From IMG/VR virus record IMGVR_UViG_3300020420_000671: 64,000 nucleotides of DNA. The stretch is one strand, 5' to 3'. The notes below the pieces were generated by a model, which worked only from the letters and a program-made list of their open reading frames with translations, was not told the origin of the DNA and did no database searches. The stretch comes from a virus (taxonomy: Duplodnaviria > Caudoviricetes). Position numbers and translations under genes: made by a program. Shown here piece by piece: positions 1 to 16,299 of the stretch; the first letter of the stretch is position 1; each line of letters starts with the position of its first letter.

Positions 1-125
1 TCCAAGTCCTCAACGAGGTACTCAGACCCAATCTTGAACTTCCAGTAATGATTGCCGGAAGCAAACTTACCGTCTTCAGAGTGTGCTCCGTAATTTTCTA
101 AAACCTGTGTGCTAACTATAAACAT
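1..125 (-). CDS. hypothetical phage protein, 3'-truncated by window edge (MFIVSTQVLENYGAHSEDGKFASGNHYWKFKIG...)
   Basis: Manually translated; ATG at 125 preceded by GAGGGC RBS and TTGACA-17-TATACT promoter (188-160). Confidence 0.7.
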   Translation of the reverse strand, partial: MFIVSTQVLENYGAHSEDGKFASGNHYWKFKIGSEYLVEDL

Positions 126-201
126 TTATTTGCCCTCTTTTTTGTTTAACTATACTTGCAGTATAACACCCCCTTGCGAGGGTGTCAACCTTTTATTTTA
201 A

Positions 202-549
202 TTAATCTGCTCTGCTACCCATGTAGGCCTTAAAGCCATATTTCCTAAGTACCTCGGCATAGGCCTGTGCTCCGACCTCTTTACAGTCCATGCTCTGTCC
301 CGCATGTTTTGCCGGATCCCACATAGTCATCGTCTTGCTCATATGGCTCTTTCTAAAGCCCACGGAAGCAAGTGCCTTAGCCTCTTTCGAATTAGTTCTG
401 CCCACGCTCACGTCTACCCAAGCAAACCCACAATACATCGGCTCGCCATATTCGTTGCCGCCTGTCTTGCTGTTCCAGTCTGTTAAGAATTGTCCCACAG
501 CATTCTTTGCCGCTTGGGTTGCTTCTGTATGGATGTCTAGTATTTGCAT
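202..549 (-). CDS. hypothetical phage protein
   Basis: 115-aa ORF with its own promoter (613-585) and AAGGGC RBS. Confidence 0.8.
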   Translation of the reverse strand: MQILDIHTEATQAAKNAVGQFLTDWNSKTGGNEYGEPMYCGFAWVDVSVGRTNSKEAKALASVGFRKSHMSKTMTMWDPAKHAGQSMDCKEVGAQAYAEVLRKYGFKAYMGSRAD

Positions 550-760
550 TTTTAGCCCTTCTGTTAATGTTTAACTATACTTGCATTATATGATCTAATA
601 TCCTATAAGTCAACCTCTTTTGGAAAAAAAATTTCTACTGGAATTACAGGCATTGGTAGTGTTTGTCTCCGACTCTTACTTGGGAATTCAGCCGCCCTAA
701 CCCTCTAACTATATGCAGTATATGATCTATTGATAGGTCTGTCAACCCCTAATGGAAGAC

Positions 761-838
761 TGGCCTCTCCTGAGGGACTCGAACCCCCGACCCACGGCTT
801 AGAAGGCCGTTGCTCTAATCCAACTGAGCTAAGGAGAG
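761..838 (-). tRNA. tRNA-Arg(UCU)
   Basis: Cloverleaf: acceptor CTCTCCT/AGGAGAG, anticodon stem ACGGC/GCCGT with loop CTTCTAA, T-loop TTCGAGT, encoded CCA. Confidence 0.95.
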
Positions 839-893
839 ATCTCCAGTCATGCTCTGGGGGCGACTTTGCTCTGCCGCCCCCGACATCGATCCC

Positions 894-1232
894 CTATGCC
901 GTTACCGGATCTTTAGTTTCTTCTGTTTGGGTGGTGTTTGATTCGACAGCGTCAGTCACTTCTTTGACGATGTCCTTAGAACAGTTCCTTACCACGAACT
1001 CACTGATCGCACTCTGTTGTTCTTCTGATTGGAACTTAGGGTGGTTGATCAGCATCTGGCAGATCTGTGCCTTGGTCATCTCTTCACCAAGTTCAATCAG
1101 TTCAAGTTCGGTGTGACCGTTCTTAGAAAGGATTTTGATCCTCTGAACGAAGTCCTTTGCGAACCTTACCTTGACTGTACCACTTGGTAGTCTAGATGTT
1201 CCTGCTACTGAGAAAGTTTTAATTGTTGCCAT
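894..1232 (-). CDS. hypothetical phage protein (MATIKTFSVAGTSRL...)
   Basis: Start re-set to ATG 1232 behind GGAGGGC RBS and promoter at 1310. Confidence 0.8.
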   Translation of the reverse strand: MATIKTFSVAGTSRLPSGTVKVRFAKDFVQRIKILSKNGHTELELIELGEEMTKAQICQMLINHPKFQSEEQQSAISEFVVRNCSKDIVKEVTDAVESNTTQTEETKDPVTA

Positions 1233-1281
1233 ATCGTTTAGCCCTCCTTCTGGCTGTGTGTTATTGTTTATCATATAATGA

Positions 1282-1476
1282 TTATACACTCTGAACTGGG
1301 TGGTTGTCAACCTCTTTTTTACCAAAAAGTTGAGCCATCCTAGCTGGAAGAACGATGCCCGAATTACATGAATCGCAACAACGGCCTTCTCTAACAGGCT
1401 CGGCGTTATGTCCGAGATCCCATCCTGTTACTGGGTCCGGGAGGATAGGCCCCCCACATATATCACATTTCTTCAT
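1282..1476 (-). CDS. small zinc-finger-like protein (CxxC...CCxxC)
   Basis: MKKCDICGG...RCCDSCN; ATG overlaps upstream TAA. Confidence 0.7.
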   Translation of the reverse strand: MKKCDICGGPILPDPVTGWDLGHNAEPVREGRCCDSCNSGIVLPARMAQLFGKKEVDNHPVQSV

Positions 1477-1673
1477 TATTTGCTCCCTGCTTGAATTAAC
1501 ATTACGGCGCCTAAGCCCATACTTACAATCGACCCTGCCACTAATAATAGCATAAGCCAAATCGGATTTGCCAGTTCCATACACTTTCCGTCGCAGTCAC
1601 CAGCACTACCTGCCGCAACTACTATGCCTAGGAATATTAAAACTGTTCCGAATATGTTTAAAAATGTTTTCAT
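1476..1673 (-). CDS. small two-TM membrane protein
   Basis: Two hydrophobic helices around a CDGKC loop; own promoter and GAGGGC RBS. Confidence 0.75.
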   Translation of the reverse strand: MKTFLNIFGTVLIFLGIVVAAGSAGDCDGKCMELANPIWLMLLLVAGSIVSMGLGAVMLIQAGSK

Positions 1674-1746
1674 CTTGCCCTCGCTTTCTTATTATGTTTA
1701 TAATATAGCACGGAATTGGATCCTTGTCAACCCCTAATTTGGAGTG

Positions 1747-1962
1747 CTATTCGTAGCACTCCCCAAAGTCCTCCCATTCCTGCTCCCACGTAGGCTGGCC
1801 ATCATCCTCATCCTCTAGGAACCGATCGCTCAGTTCGTTAGCGTCCAGCATCTCGGCGCAGTCGTCTTCCGACATCCACTTGGCGCACATGATCACCATG
1901 TCCTTGGCATCGACCATTCCGTCTTCTACCAACTCGATCATCTTATCTCTTGAAATACCCAT
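1747..1962 (-). CDS. acidic hypothetical protein
   Basis: 71-aa ORF, own promoter and GAGGGC RBS. Confidence 0.75.
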   Translation of the reverse strand: MGISRDKMIELVEDGMVDAKDMVIMCAKWMSEDDCAEMLDANELSDRFLEDEDDGQPTWEQEWEDFGECYE

Positions 1963-2043
1963 TTTGCCCTCTTTCTGTTTCCTTATTATGTTTATACTAT
2001 AGCACAGGTTTGGACCCGTGTCAACCCCTTTTTTTAAAAAACA

Positions 2044-2229
2044 TTAACACACATAATAATGTGTTAACGTAATATCCTCCATGCTTAAATTTAATTGCTT
2101 ACTTAAATTATACTTTGTCATAAATTGCTGTCCCATAGCAAAACGTTTAGTTTTACTTTGCACAACGCATAAGTCCTGCACTTCAGCTCCGTTTACATTG
2201 TAAGTAAAGTGCACTTGTAACTGTTTCAT
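2044..2229 (-). CDS. hypothetical protein, proline-free, UC/CC-free mRNA
   Basis: ATG 2229 behind GAGGGC; promoter TTGCGT-17-TACTAT. Confidence 0.75.
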   Translation of the reverse strand: MKQLQVHFTYNVNGAEVQDLCVVQSKTKRFAMGQQFMTKYNLSKQLNLSMEDITLTHYYVC

Positions 2230-2298
2230 TTTGTAGCCCTCGTTGTTGTATTGTATTTGCATAGTAGCACAAAAAATGCTACTACGCAACCATTTTTT

Positions 2299-2502
2299 TT
2301 ATAAATGTTTAATTTTTGTGTTAGTGCTTTCAAAAACGTTTACACATTTTGCACTTGTTAAATCATAAACTAAATGTGTAGTGTATAATTTATTTTGTAA
2401 CATATACGCATTGCAATCTTGTATGTTTTCAAAAAACTGTAAATGTGTTTTATCATTTACATCTGCATCATTGTGTAGTAAATATTTGTACTGCATTTGC
2501 AT
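2299..2502 (-). CDS. hypothetical protein, proline-free, UC/CC-free mRNA
   Basis: ATG 2502 behind GAGGGC; promoter TTGACT at 2564. Confidence 0.75.
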   Translation of the reverse strand: MQMQYKYLLHNDADVNDKTHLQFFENIQDCNAYMLQNKLYTTHLVYDLTSAKCVNVFESTNTKIKHL

Positions 2503-2599
2503 TTTGCCCTCATTTTTTATTTTTATTATGTTTATAATATAACACAAAAAATCCAAAAAGTCAAGCAAAAAATTAATTTGTTTTTTTGGAAATTAATGC

Positions 2600-2628
2600 T
2601 TTACAAAACGGAAAATGTGTGTTATAGT
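2600..2628 (+). promoter_or_regulatory. sigma70-type early promoter, divergent from the 2564 promoter
   Basis: TTTACA-17-TATAGT upstream of GGAGGG RBS and ORF 2670. Confidence 0.75.
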
Positions 2629-2669
2629 GCATACATAATAAAACTTTAACATACTACGGAGGGTGCAGT

Positions 2670-3017
2670 ATGCAAAACTTTAAAACTATTACTAAAAAAA
2701 CAACTACTAAAGTGGAAAGTGTGCACGTGGATGTGTTGTACGCAGTAATTGAAAATTGCTACAACAGTTTACAAGTAGTGGAAGCAGACGGCACTAGTGC
2801 TAGTTACTTCCTAAATAGTGCTAACATTTTTGCACAACTACAGGAAGTATATGCAGAAAACTGCCATAATAACTATGTTAGTTTAGCAAGTGTTATGGAA
2901 GTTTTTGCTAACAACATAACTTACTACGACGAAGAATACGGCTTGTATGAAAGTGTAGTTGAAAATACTGCACTTGCTAAAGTTAAGTTGCAGGATTATG
3001 CTTGTTTAAGTAACTAA
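2670..3017 (+). CDS. hypothetical protein, proline-free, nearly UC/CC-free mRNA
   Basis: 115-aa ORF with GGAGGG RBS; the only plus-strand gene found in the early region. Confidence 0.8.
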   Translation: MQNFKTITKKTTTKVESVHVDVLYAVIENCYNSLQVVEADGTSASYFLNSANIFAQLQEVYAENCHNNYVSLASVMEVFANNITYYDEEYGLYESVVENTALAKVKLQDYACLSN

Positions 3018-3033
3018 CAAAAACAAAAAACAA

Positions 3034-3063
3034 AAAGACAGCAAAAGAACGCTGTCTTTTTTT
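3034..3063 (+). terminator. intrinsic, probably bidirectional terminator
   Basis: AAAGACAGC/GCTGTCTTT hairpin with T-tract between convergent genes. Confidence 0.75.
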
Positions 3064-3067
3064 GTGG

Positions 3068-3313
3068 CTACTTGCTACGGTGACAGCCGGATCCTCTGTT
3101 GTTGGTATCCAGGGCGTCGTAAGCACAGTCGTACATGTTCGCCACGATGCCATCTTTGGACAGATGCCTAGTAGCGTTAATGATCTTGATAGTGTCTTTA
3201 CCTGACAGGCCACCTACTACACCGGGGCCTCCACATCCGCTTAACATAATACAGAAGCAGATAACAACAAGGATAAACATCATTCCTGGTGGTGGGGTAC
3301 GAGGAGCAAACAT
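3068..3313 (-). CDS. putative lipoprotein
   Basis: Hydrophobic stretch followed by LSGC lipobox; ATG abuts upstream stop. Confidence 0.55.
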   Translation of the reverse strand: MFAPRTPPPGMMFILVVICFCIMLSGCGGPGVVGGLSGKDTIKIINATRHLSKDGIVANMYDCAYDALDTNNRGSGCHRSK

Positions 3314-3520
3314 TTAAGAAGCTACCTCAATCTGGTACCCGTAACTCCAATGTCCGTTGTCCATGTCAAACGTACATCTGTCCTTGTCCGCTACGAATAT
3401 CTTGTCTACGCCGATGCCATACTTCTCACCGTTCTGGCATAGCTCAATACCGGTCACCTTGGCCTCACCCCATCGTGTGTCAACCCTAGTACCGATCTTA
3501 ATGAATTTTCTGTCTGCCAT
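3314..3520 (-). CDS. hypothetical protein
   Basis: 68-aa ORF with GAGGG RBS and promoter at 3581. Confidence 0.75.
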   Translation of the reverse strand: MADRKFIKIGTRVDTRWGEAKVTGIELCQNGEKYGIGVDKIFVADKDRCTFDMDNGHWSYGYQIEVAS

Positions 3521-3698
3521 ATTACCCTCTTTGTTTGTTAATTTATACTTATATTATAACACCCTAATCTGCTCTTGTCAACCCCTCTTTTGCCAATTGC
3601 GATCTCTGTGGACCTGTTTCCGGAGGCCTTACAACGGGGCCTCGCATGTTGTATGCTTTATTATAGCACACAACACACAAGTTGTCAACCGTTTTATA

Positions 3699-4142
3699 CT
3701 ACGCCGCTACAGCCTCCTCTACGCTTAACTCCTCTATGTCCACGCTTAAATAACTTTCGTCATCTCCGTCGTGTCCCTGCATTCCCTGTTCGCTACCGCT
3801 ACAAGTTAAAAGTCCCCCTGTTAGTTCCTCTAACTTGTCTCCTATCATTTTGTCTAATGCTCCCGTGTAAGCAAGTCCGTTAGCATCCGTTCCGCCCTTG
3901 TACTTTAATTGTACAGTTCCTTCTCCACACGCAACTTCCTCGTCGTCGTATATGTTCCCATACACAAAGTGCAAGTACAGTTCGTCATTTGTAATTTCGC
4001 AATCTCCCCAGTAGCCGCCTTCGTAACTACTAGCCCAACCTGTTCCCAAGTTTATTACTACGCTGTAAAAATTAGCATCCTGCTTCTCTATAGTAACAGC
4101 AGTCCCTAGCTTCTCTTGTAGTTTATTTAAAAGTGTAAACAT
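3699..4142 (-). CDS. acidic hypothetical protein, proline-free, UC/CC-free mRNA
   Basis: ATG 4142 behind GAGGGC; promoter at 4208. Confidence 0.8.
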   Translation of the reverse strand: MFTLLNKLQEKLGTAVTIEKQDANFYSVVINLGTGWASSYEGGYWGDCEITNDELYLHFVYGNIYDDEEVACGEGTVQLKYKGGTDANGLAYTGALDKMIGDKLEELTGGLLTCSGSEQGMQGHDGDDESYLSVDIEELSVEEAVAA

Positions 4143-4217
4143 ATTTGCCCTCATGTTTGTTGTTGTTTAGTATAGTTACACTATAGCACAAGTATGCTAT
4201 AGTGTCAAGTGTTTTTT

Positions 4218-4694
4218 TTAATAACTTTCAAAAATCCGTAAACTTAAACTTAACCAGTGTTCTACTTGTTCGTCTACGTCCTTGTTAAGTAAGTTGTCGT
4301 TCCACTTTTCGTAACAAGCACATTCAAACTGTTCCGTAATACTATCCCTGTATTCCGTGTCGTAACTTTTAAGTGCCATGCCTGCATCTTCCAGTGTAAA
4401 AGTCCACTCCGCATGTGTTTCGCCTCGTTGCCAATCACCGTCGTGTTCCTTGTGTTTGCCGTACAACATATCCAAGTGTCCTAGCACTTCTCTCGCATCA
4501 CACATCCTAACAAAGCCGTCGCCTGCACGTCTGCTTTCTGTGTTCATGTTTGTTAAGCCGTCTAGCACACCCGCCATAAAGTCTATAACAAAGTCCTTTT
4601 CTTGTTGTGTAAAGCGTTGCATGTCCTCCACTTTGCTTGTGTCTGTTACAAGTACGTCCCACATGCTGTTTATTTTGCTGTAATCTACTTTCAT
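4218..4694 (-). CDS. acidic hypothetical protein, proline-free, UC/CC-free mRNA
   Basis: ATG 4694 behind GAGGGC; promoter at 4754. Confidence 0.8.
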   Translation of the reverse strand: MKVDYSKINSMWDVLVTDTSKVEDMQRFTQQEKDFVIDFMAGVLDGLTNMNTESRRAGDGFVRMCDAREVLGHLDMLYGKHKEHDGDWQRGETHAEWTFTLEDAGMALKSYDTEYRDSITEQFECACYEKWNDNLLNKDVDEQVEHWLSLSLRIFESY

Positions 4695-4757
4695 ATTTGC
4701 CCTCGCTGTTTTTAAGTTATAATGCATACTAGCACCGTTTTACCAAAATGTCAAGTA

Positions 4758-4895
4758 TTATTTTACAAAATATGTAAAATAATCCTCCATGTGTTCCGCA
4801 ATGTCGTCTGCGTTCTGCAAGTCGCCGCTAGCCTCCATCTGCTCGTATGCTCTGTTTAAAAAGTAAAGTGTAATCTTGTTAAGTAATTTCTGCAA
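4758..4895 (-). CDS. 45-aa hypothetical protein (MQKLLNKITLYFLNRAYEQMEASGDLQNADDIAEHMEDYFTYFVK), not in ORF track
   Basis: TTG start behind GGAGGGC RBS and own promoter at 4955; fills the cassette exactly. Confidence 0.65.
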   Translation of the reverse strand: MQKLLNKITLYFLNRAYEQMEASGDLQNADDIAEHMEDYFTYFVK

Positions 4896-4958
4896 TGTGC
4901 CCTCCTATTGCTTAATTGTTATATGCATATTAACACCGTTTTACCAAAATGTCAACCG

Positions 4959-5144
4959 TTAATTTTCAAAATTGCTATTAAAAATATGTTCCAGTGTTTC
5001 CTGCTCGTCATCATCCAAGTATGTAAAGTCGTCACACACCTTCGTCTCACCCGTGTCCGTGTTAGTAATCTCCAGCCTACAGCTCACGTTGCCGTTGCCC
5101 CATGTTGTAGCCTTCTCGCTTGCCGCCAATTTATAAGTGTACAT
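4959..5144 (-). CDS. hypothetical protein, proline-free, UC/CC-free mRNA
   Basis: ATG 5144 behind GAGGGC; promoter at 5204. Confidence 0.75.
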   Translation of the reverse strand: MYTYKLAASEKATTWGNGNVSCRLEITNTDTGETKVCDDFTYLDDDEQETLEHIFNSNFEN

Positions 5145-5237
5145 ATTGCCCTCTATGTTTTTTAAGTTATAATGCATATTACTACACAACACGCAGTCTG
5201 TCAAGCAAAAAATTCCAAAATAATAATAAAAAACAGG

Positions 5238-5266
5238 TTGACAAATGTGGCAAGAGGTGGTATTAT
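5238..5266 (+). promoter_or_regulatory. sigma70-type promoter firing into the non-coding region
   Basis: TTGACA-17-TATTAT; no downstream ORF. Confidence 0.7.
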
Positions 5267-6040
5267 AATAGTATAACTTGCGTAAGAGGGCAACACTGAG
5301 ACAGGTGTAGAGGGCGAGAAAAACGTAAAAGGGCTACAGGCTGGCCGAATCCTGACTAGATTTCCGCCCAAAAATCTCCAACAAAAACAATGACTTAACT
5401 GGACGAACAGAAGAACACATTCCGCACCCTCCCCGCCAAAACCGTGTTAAAAAAGCCACACCATTTCGCTCCACTAATCCAAAACAATTCCGGACCATCA
5501 CTCCGTCAAATTTCCAACGATTTCCGTCCAAAAAGCACAACGAAATCAAACACATAAAGGAGCTAGTTGAATCAATACATAAGCTCCTAGTGACCCAACG
5601 CCTTAGTTATCTGCATGCACACATAGAGTGACCCAGCTGTTATACTGTAGTGAATCCCCACTTCGAATCTGGAAAGCTGTTAAAGAGGGGCGAGCCAACG
5701 AAGAACGCTCTACGGGAGGCCCCTCAGTAGGACCAGATTAACGGCCCCGAAGGGGCCTCGTGACCACCGCAGATCAGCCTTGAAAATGGTTCAAACCACG
5801 GTGGTGACAGGGGTCTGTAGTGGTGGGTGGTGTTGCGAAAATGCCACACTCTATACGAAAACCAAAAGATCTGTAGCCAAAAAAGAAAAGGTCGAGGCAG
5901 GTGACGAGAGGCATAGTTCAAATACTCTGACCCTTTTGAACACCGTAAGACCCTACCGTGAATATACCGTTCAAACCGTAGGGGCTCATCTATCTAGAGA
6001 CCTTACAGCGGGGCCTATGCTTTATAATGATCTCCTCTAC
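5267..6040. other. long non-coding region with short repeats (possible genome terminus, packaging or origin region)
   Basis: No credible ORF; TTCCG and GGGGCCT repeats, hairpins and strong local strand skew; function is inference only. Confidence 0.45.
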
Positions 6041-6041
6041 A

Positions 6042-6128
6042 TGGTACGAGCAGTGAGACTCGAACTCACACGACCTTTCAGTCTACGGATTTTAAGTCCG
6101 TTGCGTCTACCAATTCCGCCATGCTCGC
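6042..6128 (-). tRNA. tRNA-Leu(UAA)
   Basis: Cloverleaf with ACGGA/TCCGT anticodon stem, loop CTTAAAA, long variable arm, A73 and CCA. Confidence 0.95.
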
Positions 6129-6146
6129 CATGTAAACGAACGCCTC

Positions 6147-6374
6147 TTAACCATCAGAAACGTCCGACCAACTCCTTTGCAACGGGGCCTTTGCCTTTGC
6201 TATTCTATCCACTATTAACTGATAGACATTTACGTTAGGAGTGTCAAGAGGCCAACTCAGGTCAACCGTGTCACTACCGTTCGCTCCGTCCTCTTCGAGG
6301 CTGTAGGATCTACCGCTACCGCTCTCCGAGCTATTAAAATCTATCGTTCCGCTGTCGCGGCTATTGTTATTCAT
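6147..6374 (-). CDS. hypothetical Ser/Gly/Asp-rich protein
   Basis: 75-aa ORF coupled to upstream ORF by ATGA overlap. Confidence 0.5.
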   Translation of the reverse strand: MNNNSRDSGTIDFNSSESGSGRSYSLEEDGANGSDTVDLSWPLDTPNVNVYQLIVDRIAKAKAPLQRSWSDVSDG

Positions 6375-6466
6375 CCTGTTATCCCATACACAATCGCATT
6401 CAGTATCACAGTGACTCCTGCCGCTATCAGCATTATCAATATCAGTGTCTGCCCTTCCGTGGGCAT
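6371..6466 (-). CDS. 31-aa single-TM peptide (MPTEGQTLILIMLIAAGVTVILNAIVYGITG)
   Basis: Manually found; fills gap with ATGA overlap to next ORF. Confidence 0.5.
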   Translation of the reverse strand: MPTEGQTLILIMLIAAGVTVILNAIVYGITG

Positions 6467-6473
6467 CTTAGGG

Positions 6474-6806
6474 TCATTCTCCATTGTCATCCTCCGTGTT
6501 ATCATTTGATATTACTCTGAGAGTCTTTCTCAGCTGATCCTGTGTTAGGGTCTTTCTGTCCTGTGGTTTGAACTTGATCTTAACGATCTTGTTGCCGTCC
6601 TGTTCTTCCGTTTCGTCTATCTCGATCTCAACTTCTGATCTTTCAACTTCGAATCTTTGAGCCAGTTCGTCTATGTCTCGCTGGAGATCCTCATAGGTTT
6701 CGTCATCCATCTGTAGATCAGCATATCGCTGAGCCAGATTCAACACGGTCTCAAATAGGGTCTGTGTCTCCGGATCCAGGGGTCCATATGTGATTTTCTC
6801 TGCCAA
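6474..6806 (-). CDS. acidic hypothetical protein
   Basis: 110-aa ORF, TTG start behind AAGGAG. Confidence 0.7.
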   Translation of the reverse strand: MAEKITYGPLDPETQTLFETVLNLAQRYADLQMDDETYEDLQRDIDELAQRFEVERSEVEIEIDETEEQDGNKIVKIKFKPQDRKTLTQDQLRKTLRVISNDNTEDDNGE

Positions 6807-6825
6807 TCATGTGTCTCCTTTGTTG

Positions 6826-7053
6826 CTACCCTTTGGGGTGTTCTATCCATTGCTCTTCTGGCAGGAAGCCAACGAGCCTATCGTGTGGTAGGGTTGAAAT
6901 AAGTTCTTCTATCGCTGTCTCATCACCACCCTTGATGTCCTTGCGGATCTGTTTCAGCACGGCATCTAAGAGCTTCTGCTGGGGTTCTGATGGCATATTG
7001 TTGAACATCTCCTCCTCAGCGAACTCTGACCACGTTCCCTTTTCACTAGGCAT
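6826..7053 (-). CDS. hypothetical protein (MPSEKGTWSEF...)
   Basis: ATG 7053 overlaps end of upstream gene; the longer ORF-track version is an artefact. Confidence 0.65.
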   Translation of the reverse strand: MPSEKGTWSEFAEEEMFNNMPSEPQQKLLDAVLKQIRKDIKGGDETAIEELISTLPHDRLVGFLPEEQWIEHPKG

Positions 7054-7645
7054 TTTCAACCTCCTCAAACTGATCCTGTTCGTATTCTGCCATTGATTCT
7101 CCAATGCCAAACTGTTCATCCAACTGACCCAACAGGGTGTGCCTTTCAGCATCCAGTAGGTCCGAGCTTTTATAGTCTGAGGGTGCCAAGCAGTCATCTG
7201 CTCCATCTTCCCATTCGCCCATGAAATCACAGCCACCTTCGTAATACATACAACGGATTGACACGTCTGGATTCTTTTCAATGTAGTAATCCAAAGCAGT
7301 CAGTGGGGGTGCCCAAGCTGAATCAAACCAGCCATTTATCTCAGCTTCGTCTGATCCTGCCACGTGATGATTGATCTCCAAGTGATCCACGTCAACGTCC
7401 CATTTTGTACCCCAATTGTTCACGGCCCAGTCATACCAGTTGTCATAGCCATCAACTATGGGTTGTGGCCCTTTGTAGTTGGCTGAACCCTTCTCGGGTG
7501 TGGGTGAAGTGGTTTCTCTCAGTGATTGTGGCATGGGTCTAAGTATGTCCAGCATCTTGCCCTTGCCTTTCACTTCCTGATAAAGAGCTTCGATCTTAGC
7601 CTTCGGACCCTTTATCGTTATTGAATTGTTACACCAATTTGGCAT
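7046..7645 (-). CDS. DUF1281/YubB-like ferredoxin-fold protein
   Basis: MPNWCNN start, WYDW...NWGTKWD and FDSAWAPP motifs typical of the family. Confidence 0.75.
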   Translation of the reverse strand: MPNWCNNSITIKGPKAKIEALYQEVKGKGKMLDILRPMPQSLRETTSPTPEKGSANYKGPQPIVDGYDNWYDWAVNNWGTKWDVDVDHLEINHHVAGSDEAEINGWFDSAWAPPLTALDYYIEKNPDVSIRCMYYEGGCDFMGEWEDGADDCLAPSDYKSSDLLDAERHTLLGQLDEQFGIGESMAEYEQDQFEEVENA

Positions 7646-7717
7646 ATTGCCCTCGCTTTCTTTGTTGTTTATAATACTATTATAAGACCTATAGGGGTAA
7701 AAGTCAACCCCTAATGG

Positions 7718-8230
7718 CTAACCTATGAACTGACCTTTCTTCTTCATGTCTAAAACTCTTTTCAGCATATCGATATGATCCTGTACCGCAACCTCAAACA
7801 GTGGCTTGATAGTCTCAGGCTCATTTTCATCTACATAGAACCATTCGAACTTCTCTTCATCTGCCTTCTTGCTCACATCCTTGAGAACATATAGATATTC
7901 TTCACCGCATTTGAAAGCCTCGTCCAACAGGACCACCCCATTCAGGTGCTTGTGGTATCCCACATCCTTTTCGCCTCGGTCACGGCCATAATAGACATTC
8001 TGTATGTCATAGTCCTTAGCCTTGCGATCGTCGAAGTCAATCTTTGATCCTACGGTATAGGCCCACTTGGAAGCATCTCCCAATTCAATTGCTTCTTGAA
8101 CCTTGTCGTAGTTGGTCCAATGATCGATCAGGATATAACCTAGTCCTCCTGGATAACCGTCCCAATGTTGATATGATGAAATAAATGAACCGTCTTTCAG
8201 TTCCAATGCTATTCTTGCCCTTGTTGCCAT
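7718..8230 (-). CDS. conserved phage hypothetical protein
   Basis: MATRARIA...YQHWDGYP motif; own promoter. Confidence 0.8.
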   Translation of the reverse strand: MATRARIALELKDGSFISSYQHWDGYPGGLGYILIDHWTNYDKVQEAIELGDASKWAYTVGSKIDFDDRKAKDYDIQNVYYGRDRGEKDVGYHKHLNGVVLLDEAFKCGEEYLYVLKDVSKKADEEKFEWFYVDENEPETIKPLFEVAVQDHIDMLKRVLDMKKKGQFIG

Positions 8231-8274
8231 CTTTGTGCCTTTCCTTGTTGCCTTATTATGTTTATATTATATGA

Positions 8275-8592
8275 TCAATTGAGAACTTTGTCAACCTGTT
8301 TCGACTGACTAGTTTCACCAATGATCAATGCCAATTTTAATAGTATGCCCTCCACATTCATAGGAGATAGGTTGTGAATAACATCATCAACCCAGTCCAT
8401 TTCGTTCAGTGGGTCAGGGTGGATCCCAGGTAATTGAACAAAACGACCATCCTTGAAAATAGCCAATTCATAGTGATTACCTTTGCCTGTAAGATCAACA
8501 ACGGACACTTCATATGGTCCCATTTGAACTTTGGCTTGGATCCCACCTGCCTTCACTGGGTGGGGCAAAAATTGTAAATCTGTAAATCTCAT
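8275..8592 (-). CDS. hypothetical protein
   Basis: 105-aa ORF in operon. Confidence 0.7.
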   Translation of the reverse strand: MRFTDLQFLPHPVKAGGIQAKVQMGPYEVSVVDLTGKGNHYELAIFKDGRFVQLPGIHPDPLNEMDWVDDVIHNLSPMNVEGILLKLALIIGETSQSKQVDKVLN

Positions 8593-8594
8593 AT

Positions 8595-8954
8595 CTAGCT
8601 CCCTGTCACAAGTTCTAGTTCGCCATTGTCTAGCATGGTGAAATCTTCGACAAAATAGTGCCAGTCACCTTTGGCCTTCTTTGCCTGTTGAAAGCAGTCT
8701 TCCGCCGCCTTCCATAAAGCACCTAGGGTACCGTCTTCTGCTACGGCTTTGAAAGTCACCCAGGTTGTGTCGTCAAAGGACGGACCCATCTCATCGATGA
8801 TCTTGTAGGAAACCGTTCTAGGCTTGTCTGTGAAAATCTTGAAGTCCAAAGGCATACAGCCTTGTAGATCCATATCGAACACGGTGTCATAACCTAACTG
8901 ATCCTTTAGACCATCATAATGATTACGTTCTTTAATAAAATTATCTTCTAGCAT
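8595..8954 (-). CDS. hypothetical protein
   Basis: ATG 8954 behind GGAGGG; promoter at 9022. Confidence 0.75.
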   Translation of the reverse strand: MLEDNFIKERNHYDGLKDQLGYDTVFDMDLQGCMPLDFKIFTDKPRTVSYKIIDEMGPSFDDTTWVTFKAVAEDGTLGALWKAAEDCFQQAKKAKGDWHYFVEDFTMLDNGELELVTGS

Positions 8955-9029
8955 ATAACCCTCCAAAGTTTTGTTTGCCCTAATTACTCATTTATTATAT
9001 GATCATTTTGAAGCCTTGTCAACCCCTAA

Positions 9030-9638
9030 TTAACAAGAAACTGCATTTAATCTCTTATTAATTGACTCTTTTTCTTCATCAGGTAGAACGTCCCAATATT
9101 CCATCAGTATCTTGTACGCCACTTCATATTTGTTTTCGCTCTTATATCCTGACTCTGGATCTATGTTCCAATCTCTATTTCTAGTGGTAATGGTCATCTG
9201 ATCTGGGTTTTCATAATCCTCTGTATCATACTCAATAACATCCTGCCATTCATTCATAATTTGAAATAGATATTCATTGGCATGATCGTAGTCATCACCT
9301 ATCCAGTCATATTCATTGACAGCAATATAGTCTGCCACTTCACTGTCACTCATGTTCATAAGTTCGTTCAGTTTCTTTTCGTCATTGATCTTATACATTC
9401 CGTGATCGTGAAACTCTATACAATTATAGAACCTATTGTCCTCTTGCCCAAGTTCATATTGCTTTGGCTTTTCAGAATAATTATCCCCTGGCGACATCTC
9501 TATAGTTGCTAGGATATATCTCATTCTCTGAGTGTCTTCTTGATACCAATCCTGATTGTTATAGACATATTCGCCAATGTTCTTTACATCACTGACGAAT
9601 GCTTTTTTGATTTGTTCTCTTTGTTTTATAGTAGTCAT
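9030..9638 (-). CDS. acidic hypothetical protein
   Basis: 202-aa ORF with GAGGGC RBS and long leader. Confidence 0.75.
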   Translation of the reverse strand: MTTIKQREQIKKAFVSDVKNIGEYVYNNQDWYQEDTQRMRYILATIEMSPGDNYSEKPKQYELGQEDNRFYNCIEFHDHGMYKINDEKKLNELMNMSDSEVADYIAVNEYDWIGDDYDHANEYLFQIMNEWQDVIEYDTEDYENPDQMTITTRNRDWNIDPESGYKSENKYEVAYKILMEYWDVLPDEEKESINKRLNAVSC

Positions 9639-9797
9639 TTAAGCCCTCTTTCTTTTTGTTATAAACCTGGCGTTTAGATCTCGGCATGCATCTGTTTTAA
9701 TCTAATACCTTAGCTCACCCTTATCAACCGACGGTAGCCTCTGTGAGTACCAAGTTTCTTATTATGTCTTTATAATAACATCATCTGACATAGTTGT

Positions 9798-10727
9798 CTA
9801 CCCCTGTTTCTGCCAAATGTAAATTTTATCCTGCTTTTTCTTGCCCTTTTGTTGACCTAGTTGTTGAAGCAGATTCTCTTCGCTGTCACACTCGGGTAGG
9901 CCATGCTTAAGAGCATCTTCATACATCTTAGGAGATATGTTAAAGCAGACGTTCCCACCTATCTTAATATGTTTCAAACATTTTTCAAACAGAGGCAAAA
10001 AGAAATCCTTGTAAAATAGTTCATCACTCTGCCATGGCTTCATGTGTTCATACAATTCTAAGTTGATGTAGGGCGGACTTGTAAGAACCATGTCATAGGG
10101 TATCTTTGAAAAGTCCACATCAAGACAGCTCTTGTAGATCATCTTTAATTTACTTGTCTGGGTCTCGAATAGTTCGTTATCAAGCTCTTGTTCTTTGTTT
10201 AGAAAGTCTATCATACCGTCATAGGCAGTTTTAAGTTCTTTGTTCGTGTCTATGCCTGTGTAATCTATATCAAGAGCCCAAGCACCTAGCATCCTGCCAC
10301 CCCAACCTGCTGTCGGATCTAATACATGGCTGGCTCCATATTTCTTGTAGAGATATTTTGCCGTTGTGCTTTTGAACATCACAATGGATCCAAGATTGAT
10401 ACGGAAACATTCATAGACATTACCAGCGGCAGTTCTGCCACCTCTGTTTCTCTTTCGAGTGTTTTCGATCAGCTTCTTTCGTTCTTTTGGATCATTCCAG
10501 ATGTCATAGATAGTCTTGCCCTTTTCTCTACGGCAGTTCAATAAATTCTTAAATTGAAAGTGATATAGAAATGGATTGCCATAGAAGTTATTCTTATTCT
10601 GTACGGCTTCAAACTTTCTTAAATTTTCTAAATCTTTTTGAAGTTCTCTAGTGGAGATGATTTTATGATTCTCAATGTCATTTATAGTCACCGAACTCAA
10701 ATGTCTATTTACTGGCTTCAACTTCAT
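9798..10727 (-). CDS. DNA amino-methyltransferase (N4-C/N6-A type)
   Basis: SAM-binding motif VLDPTAGWGGR and catalytic motif TSPPY. Confidence 0.85.
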   Translation of the reverse strand: MKLKPVNRHLSSVTINDIENHKIISTRELQKDLENLRKFEAVQNKNNFYGNPFLYHFQFKNLLNCRREKGKTIYDIWNDPKERKKLIENTRKRNRGGRTAAGNVYECFRINLGSIVMFKSTTAKYLYKKYGASHVLDPTAGWGGRMLGAWALDIDYTGIDTNKELKTAYDGMIDFLNKEQELDNELFETQTSKLKMIYKSCLDVDFSKIPYDMVLTSPPYINLELYEHMKPWQSDELFYKDFFLPLFEKCLKHIKIGGNVCFNISPKMYEDALKHGLPECDSEENLLQQLGQQKGKKKQDKIYIWQKQG

Positions 10728-10758
10728 ACTAATATATTATAATCAAAACCCCTTTTTG

Positions 10759-10965
10759 TCAACCAGTATTGGCCAACCCGTAATGAGTGTACCACATCTC
10801 CTTGTGATCGACATAAAAGTCAGTATCACGATCGTAATACTTTCCTTCTTGCGGATCATAATACAGAACCTTGCCTGATTCAAACATATATGGACCTTCC
10901 AATCCTTGATCACTCAAGTCCGTGTATCTTTCACGGTCAATCTGTCCTAGCACCTTATACCCCAT
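10759..10965 (-). CDS. hypothetical protein
   Basis: 68-aa ORF in coupled operon. Confidence 0.7.
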   Translation of the reverse strand: MGYKVLGQIDRERYTDLSDQGLEGPYMFESGKVLYYDPQEGKYYDRDTDFYVDHKEMWYTHYGLANTG

Positions 10966-11176
10966 TAAGAAATCCTCCTAAAAAATCTGGTTTACGGTTT
11001 CTACCCTTGCGGATCTTGATAAAGTTTCTTTCAGTGACCACACTCGGCATACCATGCCTGCCACCCATGTTCACCACCCAACCAATAGGGCCCTTCATCA
11101 CTGCCTTGCCCTTCAACTCTTTTGAGTGTGGGGTAGAAAAATAAACTGTATCACCTACCATAATATCATTAAACAT
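10955..11176 (-). CDS. hypothetical protein
   Basis: 73-aa ORF in coupled operon. Confidence 0.7.
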   Translation of the reverse strand: MFNDIMVGDTVYFSTPHSKELKGKAVMKGPIGWVVNMGGRHGMPSVVTERNFIKIRKGRNRKPDFLGGFLNGV

Positions 11177-11376
11177 TATTTGATCTCCTTTATTTCATAA
11201 AAGATTGCGTCTTTAAGGTCGTCCGTGTCGAAACTATATTCTTCACCTGAGTCCTCATCGTGAACATAAAGTTTCTGCTCTTCAGGATCGAACCCATCTA
11301 CCCTTGACCAATCGTCTCCGGGCAGTTTGATGAAAGAAGCTCTCTTACATTTTTCAAACATTACCTTGTCCATCAT
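11176..11376 (-). CDS. hypothetical protein
   Basis: 66-aa ORF in coupled operon. Confidence 0.7.
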   Translation of the reverse strand: MMDKVMFEKCKRASFIKLPGDDWSRVDGFDPEEQKLYVHDEDSGEEYSFDTDDLKDAIFYEIKEIK

Positions 11377-11600
11377 AATGATTCCTCCTCTCGCATATTC
11401 GCAAAGAGCATCAACTCTATTGAAAGTTCCTTTGCCTGCTCCCTTGTGAGTGATATGTAATCGAAGTGATTGTCTGCGGTTGTCCTAGGTGTTTTACCTG
11501 TTCTAGGTAGTGTTATTTGAACGCAGGAGCCTTTGTCTTTCCCACCAAAGAATCTAGTGAGCCAAAATGCTTCTGAATTAGTTTTAAGATCTGTTGCCAT
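11373..11600 (-). CDS. hypothetical protein
   Basis: 75-aa ORF, GAGGGC RBS, promoter at 11660. Confidence 0.75.
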   Translation of the reverse strand: MATDLKTNSEAFWLTRFFGGKDKGSCVQITLPRTGKTPRTTADNHFDYISLTREQAKELSIELMLFANMREEESL

Positions 11601-11656
11601 GTCGCCCTCTCTGTTGCCTTATTATGTTTATATTATATGATCAGTTGATCTTCTTG

Positions 11657-12025
11657 TCAACCCCTAATCATGCCCTGTTCAATTGCGGCCGCTCGAACTA
11701 TGGGTGTGAATGCTTCACTTACTAAAAATTCAACCCTGTCCCAGTTGCCTGGAAAATATTGATCTCTGCCGTAGTATTCTGGCAATGGAAGATCATCTCT
11801 TTTGAGGCCTAGTACCTTAAGACTCTTACCTCTATTGATAAGACCATTGTTAAAAATGTCATAGGTGACATTCTGTGCCTTTCGGAACTTTTCAAGACAT
11901 CTGTTCTTGTTGGCATTCTTTACCATGCCCATTGCTGGTAATTTGTCTTGGAGTGCGTCTACCAAATGTTTGACATCGTTTCTGACGCCCCATTCACTTG
12001 TGAATAATTCTGCTTGTTTGTCCAT
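11657..12025 (-). CDS. hypothetical protein
   Basis: 122-aa ORF, GAGGG RBS, promoter at 12085. Confidence 0.75.
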   Translation of the reverse strand: MDKQAELFTSEWGVRNDVKHLVDALQDKLPAMGMVKNANKNRCLEKFRKAQNVTYDIFNNGLINRGKSLKVLGLKRDDLPLPEYYGRDQYFPGNWDRVEFLVSEAFTPIVRAAAIEQGMIRG

Positions 12026-12105
12026 AATACCCTCTTCTTGTTTAAGTTATAATTGCATTATATGATCAATAAACTCTCTTGTCAACCCCTAATGAAAAAT
12101 AAAGT

Positions 12106-12199
12106 TGGTGGTCCCGGGGAGATTCGAACTCCCATCGCTCTCTAATCTGGAGACTTTGCCGAGTATAAGCCGGGTGTTTTACCATTAAACTACAGGACC
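12106..12199 (-). tRNA. tRNA-Ile(UAU) with atypical long variable arm
   Basis: Acceptor GGTCCTG/CGGGACC, loop CTTATAC, 24-nt variable region, T-stem GGGAG/CTCCC, A73 and CCA; 94 nt. Confidence 0.8.
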
Positions 12200-12207
12200 A
12201 CGGAACT

Positions 12208-12441
12208 TTAATTTAGGACAGGATCGTTAGGGCGTTCTTCTTGATCCGGATGCCAATGAGTGACATCACCGGTTAGAAAGCCATAATCATTATAAAAGAT
12301 AGACATTCCTCTCCACATTCTTCCTTCTTCATCTTCGTATAGTCCTCCATAGAAACCTCTATGGGTTCCTACGATATCAAAATGATACCAACAGGGTTCT
12401 CCTACCTCAGGTAGTCTTTCGTCAACATGAATCCATTCCAT
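12208..12441 (-). CDS. DUF551-like protein
   Basis: MEWIHVDERLPE start and VTHW end. Confidence 0.7.
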   Translation of the reverse strand: MEWIHVDERLPEVGEPCWYHFDIVGTHRGFYGGLYEDEEGRMWRGMSIFYNDYGFLTGDVTHWHPDQEERPNDPVLN

Positions 12442-12483
12442 AATAAACTCCTTTCAAATAGATTATCTTGTGTTTGATGTTTA

Positions 12484-12909
12484 TTATGATATTCGAAATT
12501 CTTCTTTGACGTATCTCTTTAGTTCGTGATCACCTACATCATCGGGCAGTTCTTTCTTGAAGAACAGCCGATAAGAATCGGAGCCGTATTTTCCAATGCC
12601 ATATAGTTTGGTGGCATCGTCTCCGTCCCAAGACATAAAGTCTTCGGTCATGCGTCGAAGTGTTCTTTCGCGTCGATTGTAGAATCCACATTCTCTAATC
12701 ACTTCTATTACATCCTCCGTCTTGCTATTTAAGAACTTCCGGGGCGTAGGCCATTTGTTTAGAAAAGCCGGTAAAGTTCTTTTCACTTGTTTTCTTCCTG
12801 TTTGGTTTAGGAAGATGACCCCCACCATATGTTGCCAGGGGCCACTTATCTGTTGTTGAACCATTCTATCCTCTTTAAGAGGAATAGACAATTTCTTTCG
12901 CTTTGGCAT
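12484..12909 (-). CDS. HhH-GPD DNA glycosylase, MBD4-like (G:T/G:U mismatch)
   Basis: PWQHMVGVIFLNQTGRKQV, KWPTP and LYGIGKYGSDSY motifs. Confidence 0.8.
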   Translation of the reverse strand: MPKRKKLSIPLKEDRMVQQQISGPWQHMVGVIFLNQTGRKQVKRTLPAFLNKWPTPRKFLNSKTEDVIEVIRECGFYNRRERTLRRMTEDFMSWDGDDATKLYGIGKYGSDSYRLFFKKELPDDVGDHELKRYVKEEFRIS

Positions 12910-13384
12910 ATAAGGTTTTATCTCCTTTGGTCAAAACTTCTAACAAGGCTTTCATCTCTTCGATGTAAACCTTTGCGAAGCTCGGATCGTTTGCCTTGAT
13001 GTCCTGTGAATTAGATATGACATCTGCCAATTTGATAGTTTGAACTTCGGCATTTTGTTTCGCCAAATGATCTTTGTCAATGGCCTTCCTTGCTTTTCTG
13101 TTGCCATCTTCTGGCTTAGAAACATCAGTCAAACCTTCTACCAAGTCGGCTACCTTTTGTGAAGTCTTATCAGCGATATCCTCTAAGGTAAAATCAGTAT
13201 CCTCCACCACGTCATGTAATAAAGCGGCGGCGATCATTTCATCTGTATGATCAACTTCCTGAACGATAGTGGCTACCTCAATAGGATGAACAATGTAAGG
13301 CAATTTAGAATATTTTCTAAACTGACCTTCATGTGCCTTGCCAGCCAACATCTTCGCTTCATTTATTAATGGTGTGTCTTTCAT
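12875..13384 (-). CDS. stand-alone RelA/SpoT-type HD hydrolase (Mesh1/SAH-like)
   Basis: AHEGQFRK...PYIVHP...AALLHDVVEDT...IKLAD motifs. Confidence 0.85.
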   Translation of the reverse strand: MKDTPLINEAKMLAGKAHEGQFRKYSKLPYIVHPIEVATIVQEVDHTDEMIAAALLHDVVEDTDFTLEDIADKTSQKVADLVEGLTDVSKPEDGNRKARKAIDKDHLAKQNAEVQTIKLADVISNSQDIKANDPSFAKVYIEEMKALLEVLTKGDKTLYAKAKEIVYSS

Positions 13385-13690
13385 TTACTCACTCGCTAAA
13401 GGATCTTTCCATTCAATCTCGTCCACGTCCCATAGATCCTCAAATGGAACAACGAATTCTCTTTTGGACTTTTCGTCCTGAAGTTTTACCAACTTCTTTT
13501 CTGTATCTCTTTGAAGCAGAATACCAAGTCCTTCATAGGTGCCTGTCTTCGCAATAGGTAAGTCGGATAAACTATATTGGCCACCTAAACGACCGAATTC
13601 GTCGATAGGCATATTTTCTAATTTGAATTTGGCCGCATAGCTCTTGCCCGGCTCAATAGTTTCGATTGTCAACATTGTTTTCTCCTTCAT
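13385..13690 (-). CDS. hypothetical protein
   Basis: 101-aa ORF behind promoter at 13728. Confidence 0.7.
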   Translation of the reverse strand: MKEKTMLTIETIEPGKSYAAKFKLENMPIDEFGRLGGQYSLSDLPIAKTGTYEGLGILLQRDTEKKLVKLQDEKSKREFVVPFEDLWDVDEIEWKDPLASE

Positions 13691-13736
13691 TGTCCTTATA
13701 TTATAAGGTCAATTATTTTAGATGTCAACTATTATT

Positions 13737-13886
13737 TTAATTATCTGAAGTTAGATCTGCCAATCCCTGTGCCGCTTGGTTAGTAAAAGCCTTCGCGGTG
13801 TTGATAAGGCCGGAAAAATCTCCGCCTGTATCATAGAGATAGTAGATACCAAAACCAATCGCAATATAGATCGCAATCTTGATCAT
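13737..13886 (-). CDS. 49-aa membrane peptide (MIKIAIYIAIGFGIYYLYDTGG...)
   Basis: Manually found; ATGA overlap with upstream stop. Confidence 0.6.
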   Translation of the reverse strand: MIKIAIYIAIGFGIYYLYDTGGDFSGLINTAKAFTNQAAQGLADLTSDN

Positions 13887-14107
13887 GCCATCGCTCCTTC
13901 CACTTGTTTCAAAACCTTTTTGGAATGCTTACAATAGCCATGCCAGCCAAAGCCGATACAATCACACTCAAAGCCTTTGTCTGTCAATTCAACAGAATAT
14001 TGATTTCCTGTTGAGCCTGTCACTGGCCATGTTATTCCTACCCAACAATGATCTTTAGGATCAAATAGATTAGGTTTTAGATATTTTTTTTGATATTTTT
14101 TAGACAT
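13883..14107 (-). CDS. SWIM zinc-finger protein
   Basis: FECDC...YCKH motif. Confidence 0.8.
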   Translation of the reverse strand: MSKKYQKKYLKPNLFDPKDHCWVGITWPVTGSTGNQYSVELTDKGFECDCIGFGWHGYCKHSKKVLKQVEGAMA

Positions 14108-14309
14108 TCCATTCAATTAAAGGCTTTCTATTCATGTTCGAATAAATTGCCTTCACCCTGTAATTATATGTGGTTTCATTTAGAGCCAGATTGGATAAAT
14201 GTTTCTTCCAAATAGATTTGTAATCTTCCGGAAGAGTTGGATTGTTCTCGAGCAGAAACCTAATGGCCTCTGCTCTTTGAAGTTGTTTATCCTCGGAATA
14301 AGGACCCAT
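14100..14309 (-). CDS. hypothetical protein
   Basis: 69-aa ORF in coupled operon. Confidence 0.7.
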   Translation of the reverse strand: MGPYSEDKQLQRAEAIRFLLENNPTLPEDYKSIWKKHLSNLALNETTYNYRVKAIYSNMNRKPLIEWNV

Positions 14310-14602
14310 TATGCTATCTCTCTAAGATGAGTGAGCATAGAAGCAGGAACTCTCCACTTCTCTCCACCAATGTGGGTCGAAACGATAACATATTTCCTAT
14401 TCACCTTTTCAACGGTAGCATTTACCTTGCCACCAGTCCTACGAGATTTGAATTGAACCATATCGCCGATTGTGAATTGTTTGATAGCCTGCTTGGCTAG
14501 ATATTGTCTTTTGAGTTGGACGGCTTCGATAACCTCTTGTAGTTGAGTGCCTTCCATTTGATAGATAAGTTCTACCGCCTTTGTAACCAAATTGTTTGCC
14601 AT
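14309..14602 (-). CDS. hypothetical protein (SH3/KOW-like C-terminus)
   Basis: FTIGDMVQF...VEKVNRKYVIV; promoter at 14665. Confidence 0.7.
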   Translation of the reverse strand: MANNLVTKAVELIYQMEGTQLQEVIEAVQLKRQYLAKQAIKQFTIGDMVQFKSRRTGGKVNATVEKVNRKYVIVSTHIGGEKWRVPASMLTHLREIA

Positions 14603-14653
14603 TGTTCGCCCTTTCTGTTTGCCTAATTATGTTTATATTATACGATCTAAAAT

Positions 14654-14872
14654 TTACTTTGTCAAGATATTTTGGTTCTTTTCATCTAACTTTATTATCA
14701 TATCAAAGAAACTTTGAAAAAACCTATCCACATCATCTACGGGTTGACCCGCAGGAATACATACTGCCTTAGGATCTTGTTCTTTCAATCCTTCCAATGC
14801 CTGTTTACAGACATCCTCACTAGGATATAATAATTGTAGATTCATGGCTGTCGCTATCAATAAAAATTTCAT
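14654..14872 (-). CDS. hypothetical protein
   Basis: 72-aa ORF in coupled operon. Confidence 0.65.
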   Translation of the reverse strand: MKFLLIATAMNLQLLYPSEDVCKQALEGLKEQDPKAVCIPAGQPVDDVDRFFQSFFDMIIKLDEKNQNILTK

Positions 14873-15051
14873 TGTTCATTCCATTTCATAATTTCTATTT
14901 CACCTTTGTGGCTTTTCTTTGTTTTAAGAAAGCCTTGATGAATTAGATTATCGATTGTTTCTTCGATAATTTTTTTAACCTTTGCCTTGGCAAAGACGAA
15001 ACCCATATAGGTTCCTAAAACATAAGACAAAAATATAAATGTCTCAGCCAT
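14869..15051 (-). CDS. small membrane protein
   Basis: N-terminal TM; coupled overlaps. Confidence 0.65.
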   Translation of the reverse strand: MAETFIFLSYVLGTYMGFVFAKAKVKKIIEETIDNLIHQGFLKTKKSHKGEIEIMKWNEQ

Positions 15052-15805: not shown

Positions 15806-15903
15806 ATTTTAACCCTCTTGCCTTTCTGTTTGCCTAACTATATGCATATAATATAGTCACCAGAGATAATTGTCAACCTTTTTTGGTAATTTTTTTTGAA
15901 AGA

Positions 15904-16155: not shown

Positions 16156-16156
16156 T

Positions 16157-16252: not shown

Positions 16253-16299
16253 GTGTGTCTCCTGTGTTGAGTGCCTAAGTTCCTACATATAATATAGTC

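Follow-up and report, generated by a model that had tools for sequence, protein, structure and literature searches.

Why should seven neighbouring proteins of one phage be built without a single proline? The question is raised by a stretch of viral DNA (Duplodnaviria; Caudoviricetes) deposited in the IMG/VR database as record IMGVR_UViG_3300020420_000671. All 64,000 nucleotides (nt) of this stretch were analysed and are referred to below as the window. A first-pass annotation, made from the letters alone, had noticed at positions 2,044 to 5,144 a set of early open reading frames (ORFs) free of Pro and with Ser written only as AGY (Y, pyrimidine). The ORFs prove to be genuine and encode conserved early proteins of an uncultured marine T4-like giant phage. 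In our opinion, their missing proline is very probably a by-product of a selected exclusion, acting at the level of the transcript, of the pyrimidine-C dinucleotides TC and CC (UC and CC in RNA; together YC) from the sense strand. The region that obeys this rule is called the island, and its main elements are as follows.

2014-2588, minus strand: YC-free block A, 575 nt without TC or CC on the sense strand, with ORF1, ORF2, their promoters and untranslated regions
2044-2229, minus strand: ORF1, 61 amino acids (aa), no Pro, isoelectric point (pI) 8.7, ATG start, GAGGGC ribosome site
2299-2502, minus strand: ORF2, 67 aa, no Pro, pI 6.4
2536-2628, both directions: divergent promoter pair, TTGACT-17-TATATT (minus strand, ORF2) and TTTACA-17-TATAGT (plus strand, ORF3)
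2562-3055, plus strand: block B, nearly YC-free, 494 nt with three YC at 2809, 2810 and 2864
2670-3017, plus strand: ORF3, 115 aa, no Pro, pI 4.5, ratio of nonsynonymous to synonymous substitution rates (dN/dS) 0.28
3639-5236, minus strand: YC-free block C, 1,598 nt whose sense strand lacks TC and CC entirely, four cassettes of promoter, ribosome site and ORF with no terminator between them
3699-4142, minus strand: ORF4, 147 aa, no Pro, pI 4.05, invariant GSEQGMQG motif
4218-4694, minus strand: ORF5, 158 aa, no Pro, pI 4.5
4758-4895, minus strand: ORF6, 45 aa, TTG start, AGGAGGGC ribosome site, dN/dS 0.14
4959-5144, minus strand: ORF7, 61 aa, no Pro, pI 4.1

An exclusion that follows the transcript

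All seven ORFs were recovered at the positions first reported, and their lengths (61, 67, 115, 147, 158, 45 and 61 aa) add up to 654 residues. As had been claimed, these include no Pro at all, and each of the 35 Ser codons is AGT or AGC. The other ORFs of the window (13,034 residues) contain 3.64% Pro and use UCN (N, any base) for 57% of Ser codons; against this background, the chance probability is about 3e-11 for the lack of Pro and about 2e-13 for the exclusive use of AGY. On the sense strands of the seven ORFs, 3 TC or CC were observed in 2,640 nt, where about 160 would be expected. Each ORF is preceded by a ribosome site of the GAGGG type 6-9 nt upstream.

The earlier explanation of the missing Pro and UCN-type Ser, that both follow from a ban on TC and CC, was borne out, and the ban was found to extend over all codon phases and non-coding nucleotides. 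Neither GA nor GG occurs on the plus strand at 2014-2588 (575 nt) and 3639-5236 (1,598 nt), and nowhere else in the 64 kb is any dinucleotide missing from a run of more than 400 nt. In normal genes of the window YC occurs 19-23 times per kb at every codon phase, and the island lacks it in all three. The 657 nt of the island that are non-coding are likewise free of YC, compared with 63 per kb in other early intergenic DNA. Because all three phases and the non-coding nucleotides are equally clean, the ban must operate at the nucleotide level. YC-free runs of 1.6-1.8 kb occur. Over 104 kb of strict blocks no other absolute exclusion was found, and the palindromes GCGC and CGCG were moderately depleted.

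The borders of the exclusion were read in relatives that have one clean cassette among normal genes (L-numbers denote related metagenome loci that were compared with the window). At the 5' border (L019, L078, L087, L088), YC is present between the -35 and -10 boxes and beside the -10 box, and is absent downstream. At the 3' border (L027-L029, L088, L039), it reappears within the terminator hairpin, in its descending arm, or just past the T-run. Hairpins lying within clean blocks have both arms made only of allowed dinucleotides. The clean strand inverts with the direction of the genes; in the window the strand of exclusion switches at the divergent promoter pair, near 2560-2600. Thus, the exclusion spans approximately the distance from transcription start to terminator and tracks the sense strand.

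Conservation, variant rules and the replacement of proline

Homologues of all seven ORFs were found on related loci by local tblastn. The relatives came from an alignment-based scan; a single-protein pattern scan of viral contigs gave none. ORF5 has 31 database homologues and relatives on 80 metagenome loci, and ORF4 has 339 homologues, 120 of which, among the matches listed, comprise 17,869 residues with zero Pro. For the smaller ORF1 and ORF2, there are 3 homologues (74-80% identity; dN/dS 0.30) and 6 homologues (YC=0 in all; dN/dS 0.29), respectively. At the DNA level, no relatives of the island were found in the phage collection in either near or distant search mode; the only likeness of the window there was to tRNA genes, and only two tRNAs were matched by Rfam over window positions 1-8000.

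Pairwise dN/dS amounts to 0.14-0.30 in all seven families at synonymous divergence (dS) of about 0.7-1.6, and therefore the proteins are under purifying selection. Even where dS is about 1-1.6 and synonymous sites are saturated, YC stays at 0, which agrees with the initial view that the rule is held by selection and not by drift. The seven island families contain 0-9 YC per kb, and seven adjacent control families on the same contigs contain 35-125. The exclusion is conserved across hundreds of marine contigs. The previously unannotated ORF6 with its TTG start proved to be genuine: its homologues begin with ATG or TTG at the identical codon, and the residues before the first internal Met are conserved among them.

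The rule behaves as a trait of a phage lineage. Its relaxation is joint for the homologues of ORF3, ORF5 and ORF6 on one contig, and all cassettes of a lineage acquire or lose the rule jointly. In the ORF5 tree at least 3 or 4 changes of state were counted, including a graded series of 15, 8, 2 and 0 YC. Some constraint persists in the relaxed lineages: their islands contain runs of 1-2.2 kb without TCA, TCG, CCA and CCG, and 374 of their 436 YC are YCT followed by A or G, the remainder being mostly TCCT. Accordingly, their Pro codons are CCT in 38 of 38 cases and their four-box Ser codons TCT in 30 of 32. Such YCT-purine islands were seen in L047, L048, L050, L061, L076, L077, L079, L082, L085, L089 and L090, and within one contig of 11.8 kb the YCT-purine run is confined to the island. 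Among the YC exceptions in ORF3 of the window there is one TTCCTA, in agreement with this variant. In the GC-rich relative L096 (468-893), the ORF4 homologue has YC only as TCCG (6 of 6). So, three forms of the rule are observed, namely, no YC, YC only as YCT plus purine, and, on one contig, YC only as TCCG.

The clean blocks collected over about 100 loci total 120.7 kb and comprise at least 21 protein families with at least three members each, seven of which are held by the window. Basic families also belong to this pool, for example one with 17.6% Lys plus Arg and 9.6% Asp plus Glu. In two relatives' cassette families, the sense strand lacks TC, CC, GA and GG, so that both strands are clean (L010 11512-11754, minus, and 12009-12260, plus; L051 8628, plus; L092 12355, plus). 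Their proteins contain no Pro, Gly, Asp or Glu and show dN/dS of 0.25 and 0.43. Neither of these families is carried by the window.

Homologues living under and outside the rule show what became of proline. It had been proposed to examine whether conserved Pro positions were replaced, and that equally Pro-free homologues elsewhere would speak against selection on the nucleotides; in fact, relatives outside the rule hold Pro at conserved positions where the strict clade substitutes other residues. About one fifth of the ORF5 relatives have YC and 1-5 Pro. At column 151 of the ORF5 alignment, 13 of the 14 relaxed members carry Pro, the strict ones have Ala (39), Ser (7) or Gly (5), and in the near-strict L036, L053 and L056 the Pro codon of this column is the sole YC or one of the last two. 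In ORF3, EQDPT of the relaxed relatives corresponds to EADCT of the strict clade. Distant ORF4 relatives, found by a profile search of 1.8 billion representatives, contain 1-7 Pro and a recurrent xPLG in place of INLG or VDLG, nearly invariant in the strict clade; one of them is encoded by DNA of fully normal composition, where YC reaches 83 per kb and occurs in all contexts, and has 4 Pro. Proline is thus replaced by Asn/Asp, Ala/Ser/Gly or Cys, and selection on the nucleic acid overrides amino-acid preference.

What may read pyrimidine-C

We suppose that UC and CC would be kept out of the transcripts, between about +1 and the terminator, in order to hide these messages, or the displaced DNA strand, from some factor that reads pyrimidine-C in single-stranded nucleic acid. 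The preferred candidate for such a reader is a sequence-specific endoribonuclease, which might be an abortive-infection enzyme of the host or an enzyme that the phage carries in or produces to shut off the host, and the seven proteins would be those that still need to be synthesized while the factor acts. An endoribonuclease is preferred because the exclusion is near-absolute and because the escape contexts vary by lineage in the way nuclease specificities do; the near-absolute character suggests that even a single site is costly. This choice of reader is tentative, and the explanation as a whole, that is proline loss as a by-product together with an endoribonuclease reader, is held with moderate confidence. 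In a more elaborate version, which seems rather doubtful to us, an endonuclease used or faced by these phages would cut single-stranded nucleic acid at pyrimidine-C, perhaps being delivered from the capsid along with the DNA for an immediate shut-off of the host, and a small mobile pool of immune cassettes would supply the proteins needed during its action, perhaps including its inhibitor; its specificity would drift between lineages and the cassettes would be recoded. If this is true, natural proteins would be written with 19 and, in two families, 16 amino acids.

Several observations weigh against an endoribonuclease. We know of no bacterial or phage endoribonuclease with YC specificity. Neighbouring early genes with the same type of promoter are not YC-free, and the model has to postulate either a different time of expression for these unprotected neighbours or that the phage can do without them as long as the factor is active. 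Nor does a purely RNA-level model predict the families with both strands clean, where no antisense promoter is visible. Finally, metatranscriptome contigs from four studies contain pieces of ORF2 to ORF6 and of neighbouring genes, which is compatible with expression and could also be due to carried-over DNA.

To our knowledge, Rho is the only well-characterised bacterial RNA reader with exactly the YC dinucleotide specificity, and evasion of this factor, the chief rival explanation, is possible although unlikely: without 5'-YC, Rho could not load, and the early messages would be completed even when free of ribosomes. The clefts of its primary site bind 5'-YC (PMC12360218), it confines T4 transcription to immediate-early RNA in vitro and under a translation block (PMC2988021), the exclusion covers transcription start through terminator, and, when the blocks were tested for invisibility to Rho, 5'-YC primary-site ligands proved to be absent from them. 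However, Rho needs several YC over 60-80 nt, so that one or two should do no harm, yet runs of 1.6-1.8 kb have zero; moreover, its conserved dinucleotide pocket does not predict escape contexts such as YCT plus purine and TCCG, and the strong ribosome sites of these messages mean that translation already shields them. Another candidate mechanism is protection of the displaced non-template strand, which a dC-specific single-stranded DNA nuclease or a cytosine deaminase would attack at YC during heavy early transcription. The attacker could be a host enzyme or one similar to T4 endonuclease IV, which cuts single-stranded DNA at dC with a preference for dTdCdA (PMC2095790), resembling the variant rule, which tolerates YCT and excludes YCA and YCG. 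TCCG-type contexts could contain methylated C, as a reader acting on DNA and not on RNA would explain, and the cassettes with both strands clean also fit a DNA-level target better. Nevertheless, we judge this decidedly unlikely, as YC is tolerated in promoter spacers, even beside the -10 box that melts in the open complex, and codon use lacks the T-enrichment expected of deamination; no DenB homologue was found by tblastn in the window and the fetched loci, a weak test covering a small part of the genome.

A reader may also be sought on the template strand, where the excluded dinucleotides are GA and GG. A template without them would present no 7-deazaguanine-modified base to the unmodified RNA polymerase of the host, and G followed by a purine is a documented, lineage-variable specificity of DpdA, whose published motifs, GA with GGC for phage CAjan (PMC7544227) and only GA for phage iggy (PMC10484667), match the exclusion in part. 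We consider this improbable: the template strands of all other genes of the phage carry GA and GG, 7-deazaguanines retain Watson-Crick pairing, and the DpdA3 type replaces all G whatever the context (10.1101/2023.04.13.536721). Two related IMG/VR fragments, with a completeness of only 13% and 29%, were searched for TGT/DpdA without a match. The rule might even have no reader to be evaded, if C-to-U deamination had simply erased YC without benefit in proteins that tolerate it. TC and CC are classic contexts of APOBEC-type and some bacterial deaminases, and one ORF5 clade shows the graded series of 15, 8, 2 and 0 YC. Such a purely mutational origin is very improbable, and deaminase hypermutation was rejected as a candidate, since the lost C-ending codons became mainly A-ending, which gained most, and not T-ending, Pro was replaced by Ala, Ser (AGY), Gly, Asn and Cys and not by the deamination products Leu, Ser or Phe, and the borders are sharp at transcript ends, beside equally strong promoters whose genes keep YC. 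The first-pass annotation had also pointed to independence from tRNA-Pro, tRNA-Ser(NGA) and elongation factor P (EF-P). It was right that the seven ORFs require none of them; as the selected trait, for example under attack by a host anticodon nuclease, this independence is hardly credible and was rejected, because the exclusion is as complete out of frame and in the 657 non-coding nt, and because variant lineages freely use Pro (CCT) and Ser (TCT) when a purine comes next. Selection for unstructured messages was rejected too, the mean minimum free energy being -22.4 kcal/mol for the island and -23.4 kcal/mol for GC-matched control early RNA.

Cassettes, proteins and comparison with known systems

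The early genes at window 1-16400 (minus strand) and on related loci are organised as many cassettes of promoter, ribosome site and ORF, with TTAGGGG just 5' of TTGACA and a common GAGGGC ribosome site. The same architecture occurs in relatives spanning 34% to 52% GC. Every island ORF is served by a sigma-70 promoter of its own, and these promoters are near-consensus, of the TTGACA-17-TATAAT class. The remaining signals of the island are listed below.

2041-2070, minus strand: terminator 3' of ORF1, hairpin and T-run, allowed dinucleotides only
3032-3061, either direction: bidirectional hairpin terminator at the end of block B
3600-3688, minus strand: perfect sigma-70 promoter TTGACA-17-TATAAT, then the GAGGCCCCGTTGTAAGGCCTC hairpin; ends block C
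4180-4208, 4726-4754, 4927-4955 and 5176-5204, minus strand: four sigma-70 promoters, one for each cassette of block C

Cassettes are gained or lost as units, since ORF7 is lost exactly in some relatives: two metatranscriptome studies contain contigs in which position 4957 is followed, after a single additional base, by 5207, so that precisely its cassette is missing. YC-free arrays are closed by a unit consisting of a perfect sigma-70 promoter, about 25 nt and then the GAGGCCCCGYTGTAAGG hairpin, which occupies the same position in relatives (L010 10400-10470; L017, L024, L025, L032, L044). This unit may be a small RNA or an insulator; at 3600-3688 it had no Rfam match. Two genes of normal composition (81 and 68 aa) at 3068-3520 (minus strand) interrupt the island and have their own perfect promoter at 3553-3581, and their homologues retain YC (35-125 per kb) where island genes on the same contigs have none. 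Beyond block C, a plus-strand promoter at 5238-5266 leads into a leader that is YC-free to 5345 and contains orphan GAGGGC motifs (window 5217-5560). It is followed, within the same interval and on the same strand, by a C/A-rich tract that is poor in G, contains TTCCG repeats and lacks genes. This tract resembles a Rho-utilisation site, and TCCG is the escape motif of L096.

The proteins themselves give few indications of function. AlphaFold predicted with confidence a helical bundle of five helices for ORF5 (predicted local distance difference test score, pLDDT, 92) and an alpha/beta domain for ORF4 (pLDDT 85). When the seven proteins were scanned with Pfam and PHROG, nothing rose above noise, and neither model had a PDB match by Foldseek at E<=0.001. 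A fold search for ORF4 (VIA wide) reached a best Z of 4.9, which is not convincing, that for ORF5 in the atlas remained at a template modelling score (TM) below 0.4, and a feature search of the ESM atlas gave no matches. It had been suggested that most of the proteins are acidic and hence candidates for anti-defence or DNA-mimic functions. Acidity was confirmed for five of the seven (pI 4.05-4.54) and does not apply to ORF1 (pI 8.7) and ORF2 (pI 6.4). The functional suggestion gained no support: no family or fold match to such proteins was found, the YC-free pool includes basic families, and the acidity of five proteins does not by itself make them DNA mimics. Ocr, ArdA and T4 Arn, acidic DNA-mimic anti-restriction proteins, are also small, acidic and early phage proteins, but no similarity of sequence or fold to the island proteins was found.

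No published description of such a rule was found in the literature, although several known phenomena are similar in part. CpG and UpA suppression in RNA viruses of vertebrates is linked to ZAP and RNase L; there, too, a host factor reading a dinucleotide drives avoidance and constrains codon choice, while the reader of the island is only presumed. That suppression is statistical and genome-wide, whereas the exclusion in the island is essentially absolute, is limited to a few transcription units and alters the composition of proteins. In restriction-site avoidance, short motifs are purged from phages by selection against nucleases, and GCGC and CGCG are also depleted here. However, restriction concerns double-stranded sites on both strands, without the transcript borders or the strand flip seen in the island, and it was ruled out as the cause because the exclusion is strand-specific and transcript-bounded.

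A closer likeness is provided by ACA-less mRNAs, which escape the endoribonuclease MazF (the principle of single-protein production; PMC9102682, PMC5408214) and where a transcript free of the motif stays translatable as others are cut and the motif is avoided in all frames. Tested in the same way as motif-free transcripts, the three blocks of the island contain 0 YC in 575 nt, 0 in 1,598 nt and 3 in 494 nt. ACA-less messages are mostly engineered, avoid a trinucleotide and bear no amino acid cost. The island is natural, its rule is written in dinucleotides, removes Pro (in some families also Gly, Asp and Glu) and is conserved in lineages, and its reader is only presumed. The immediate-early units of T4 (PMC2988021) resemble the island in belonging to a T4-like phage with strong sigma-70 early promoters and represent that part of the early RNA whose synthesis depends on neither Rho nor translation; no dinucleotide exclusion has been described for T4 early genes, and Rho is a candidate for the reader of the island.

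Summarizing the significance of these data, a rule concerning two adjacent bases removes an amino acid from working proteins, and four are lost in related cassettes (Pro, Gly, Asp and Glu). Members of the same families occur inside and outside the rule and thus represent a natural experiment on protein folds with a reduced alphabet. A near-absolute, transcript-bounded rule, conserved in ocean phages that are abundant, points to a strong interaction that reads pyrimidine-C of single-stranded RNA or DNA early in infection. Establishing the identity of the reader could reveal a new mechanism of defence or host shut-off and could yield a design principle for messages that survive it.

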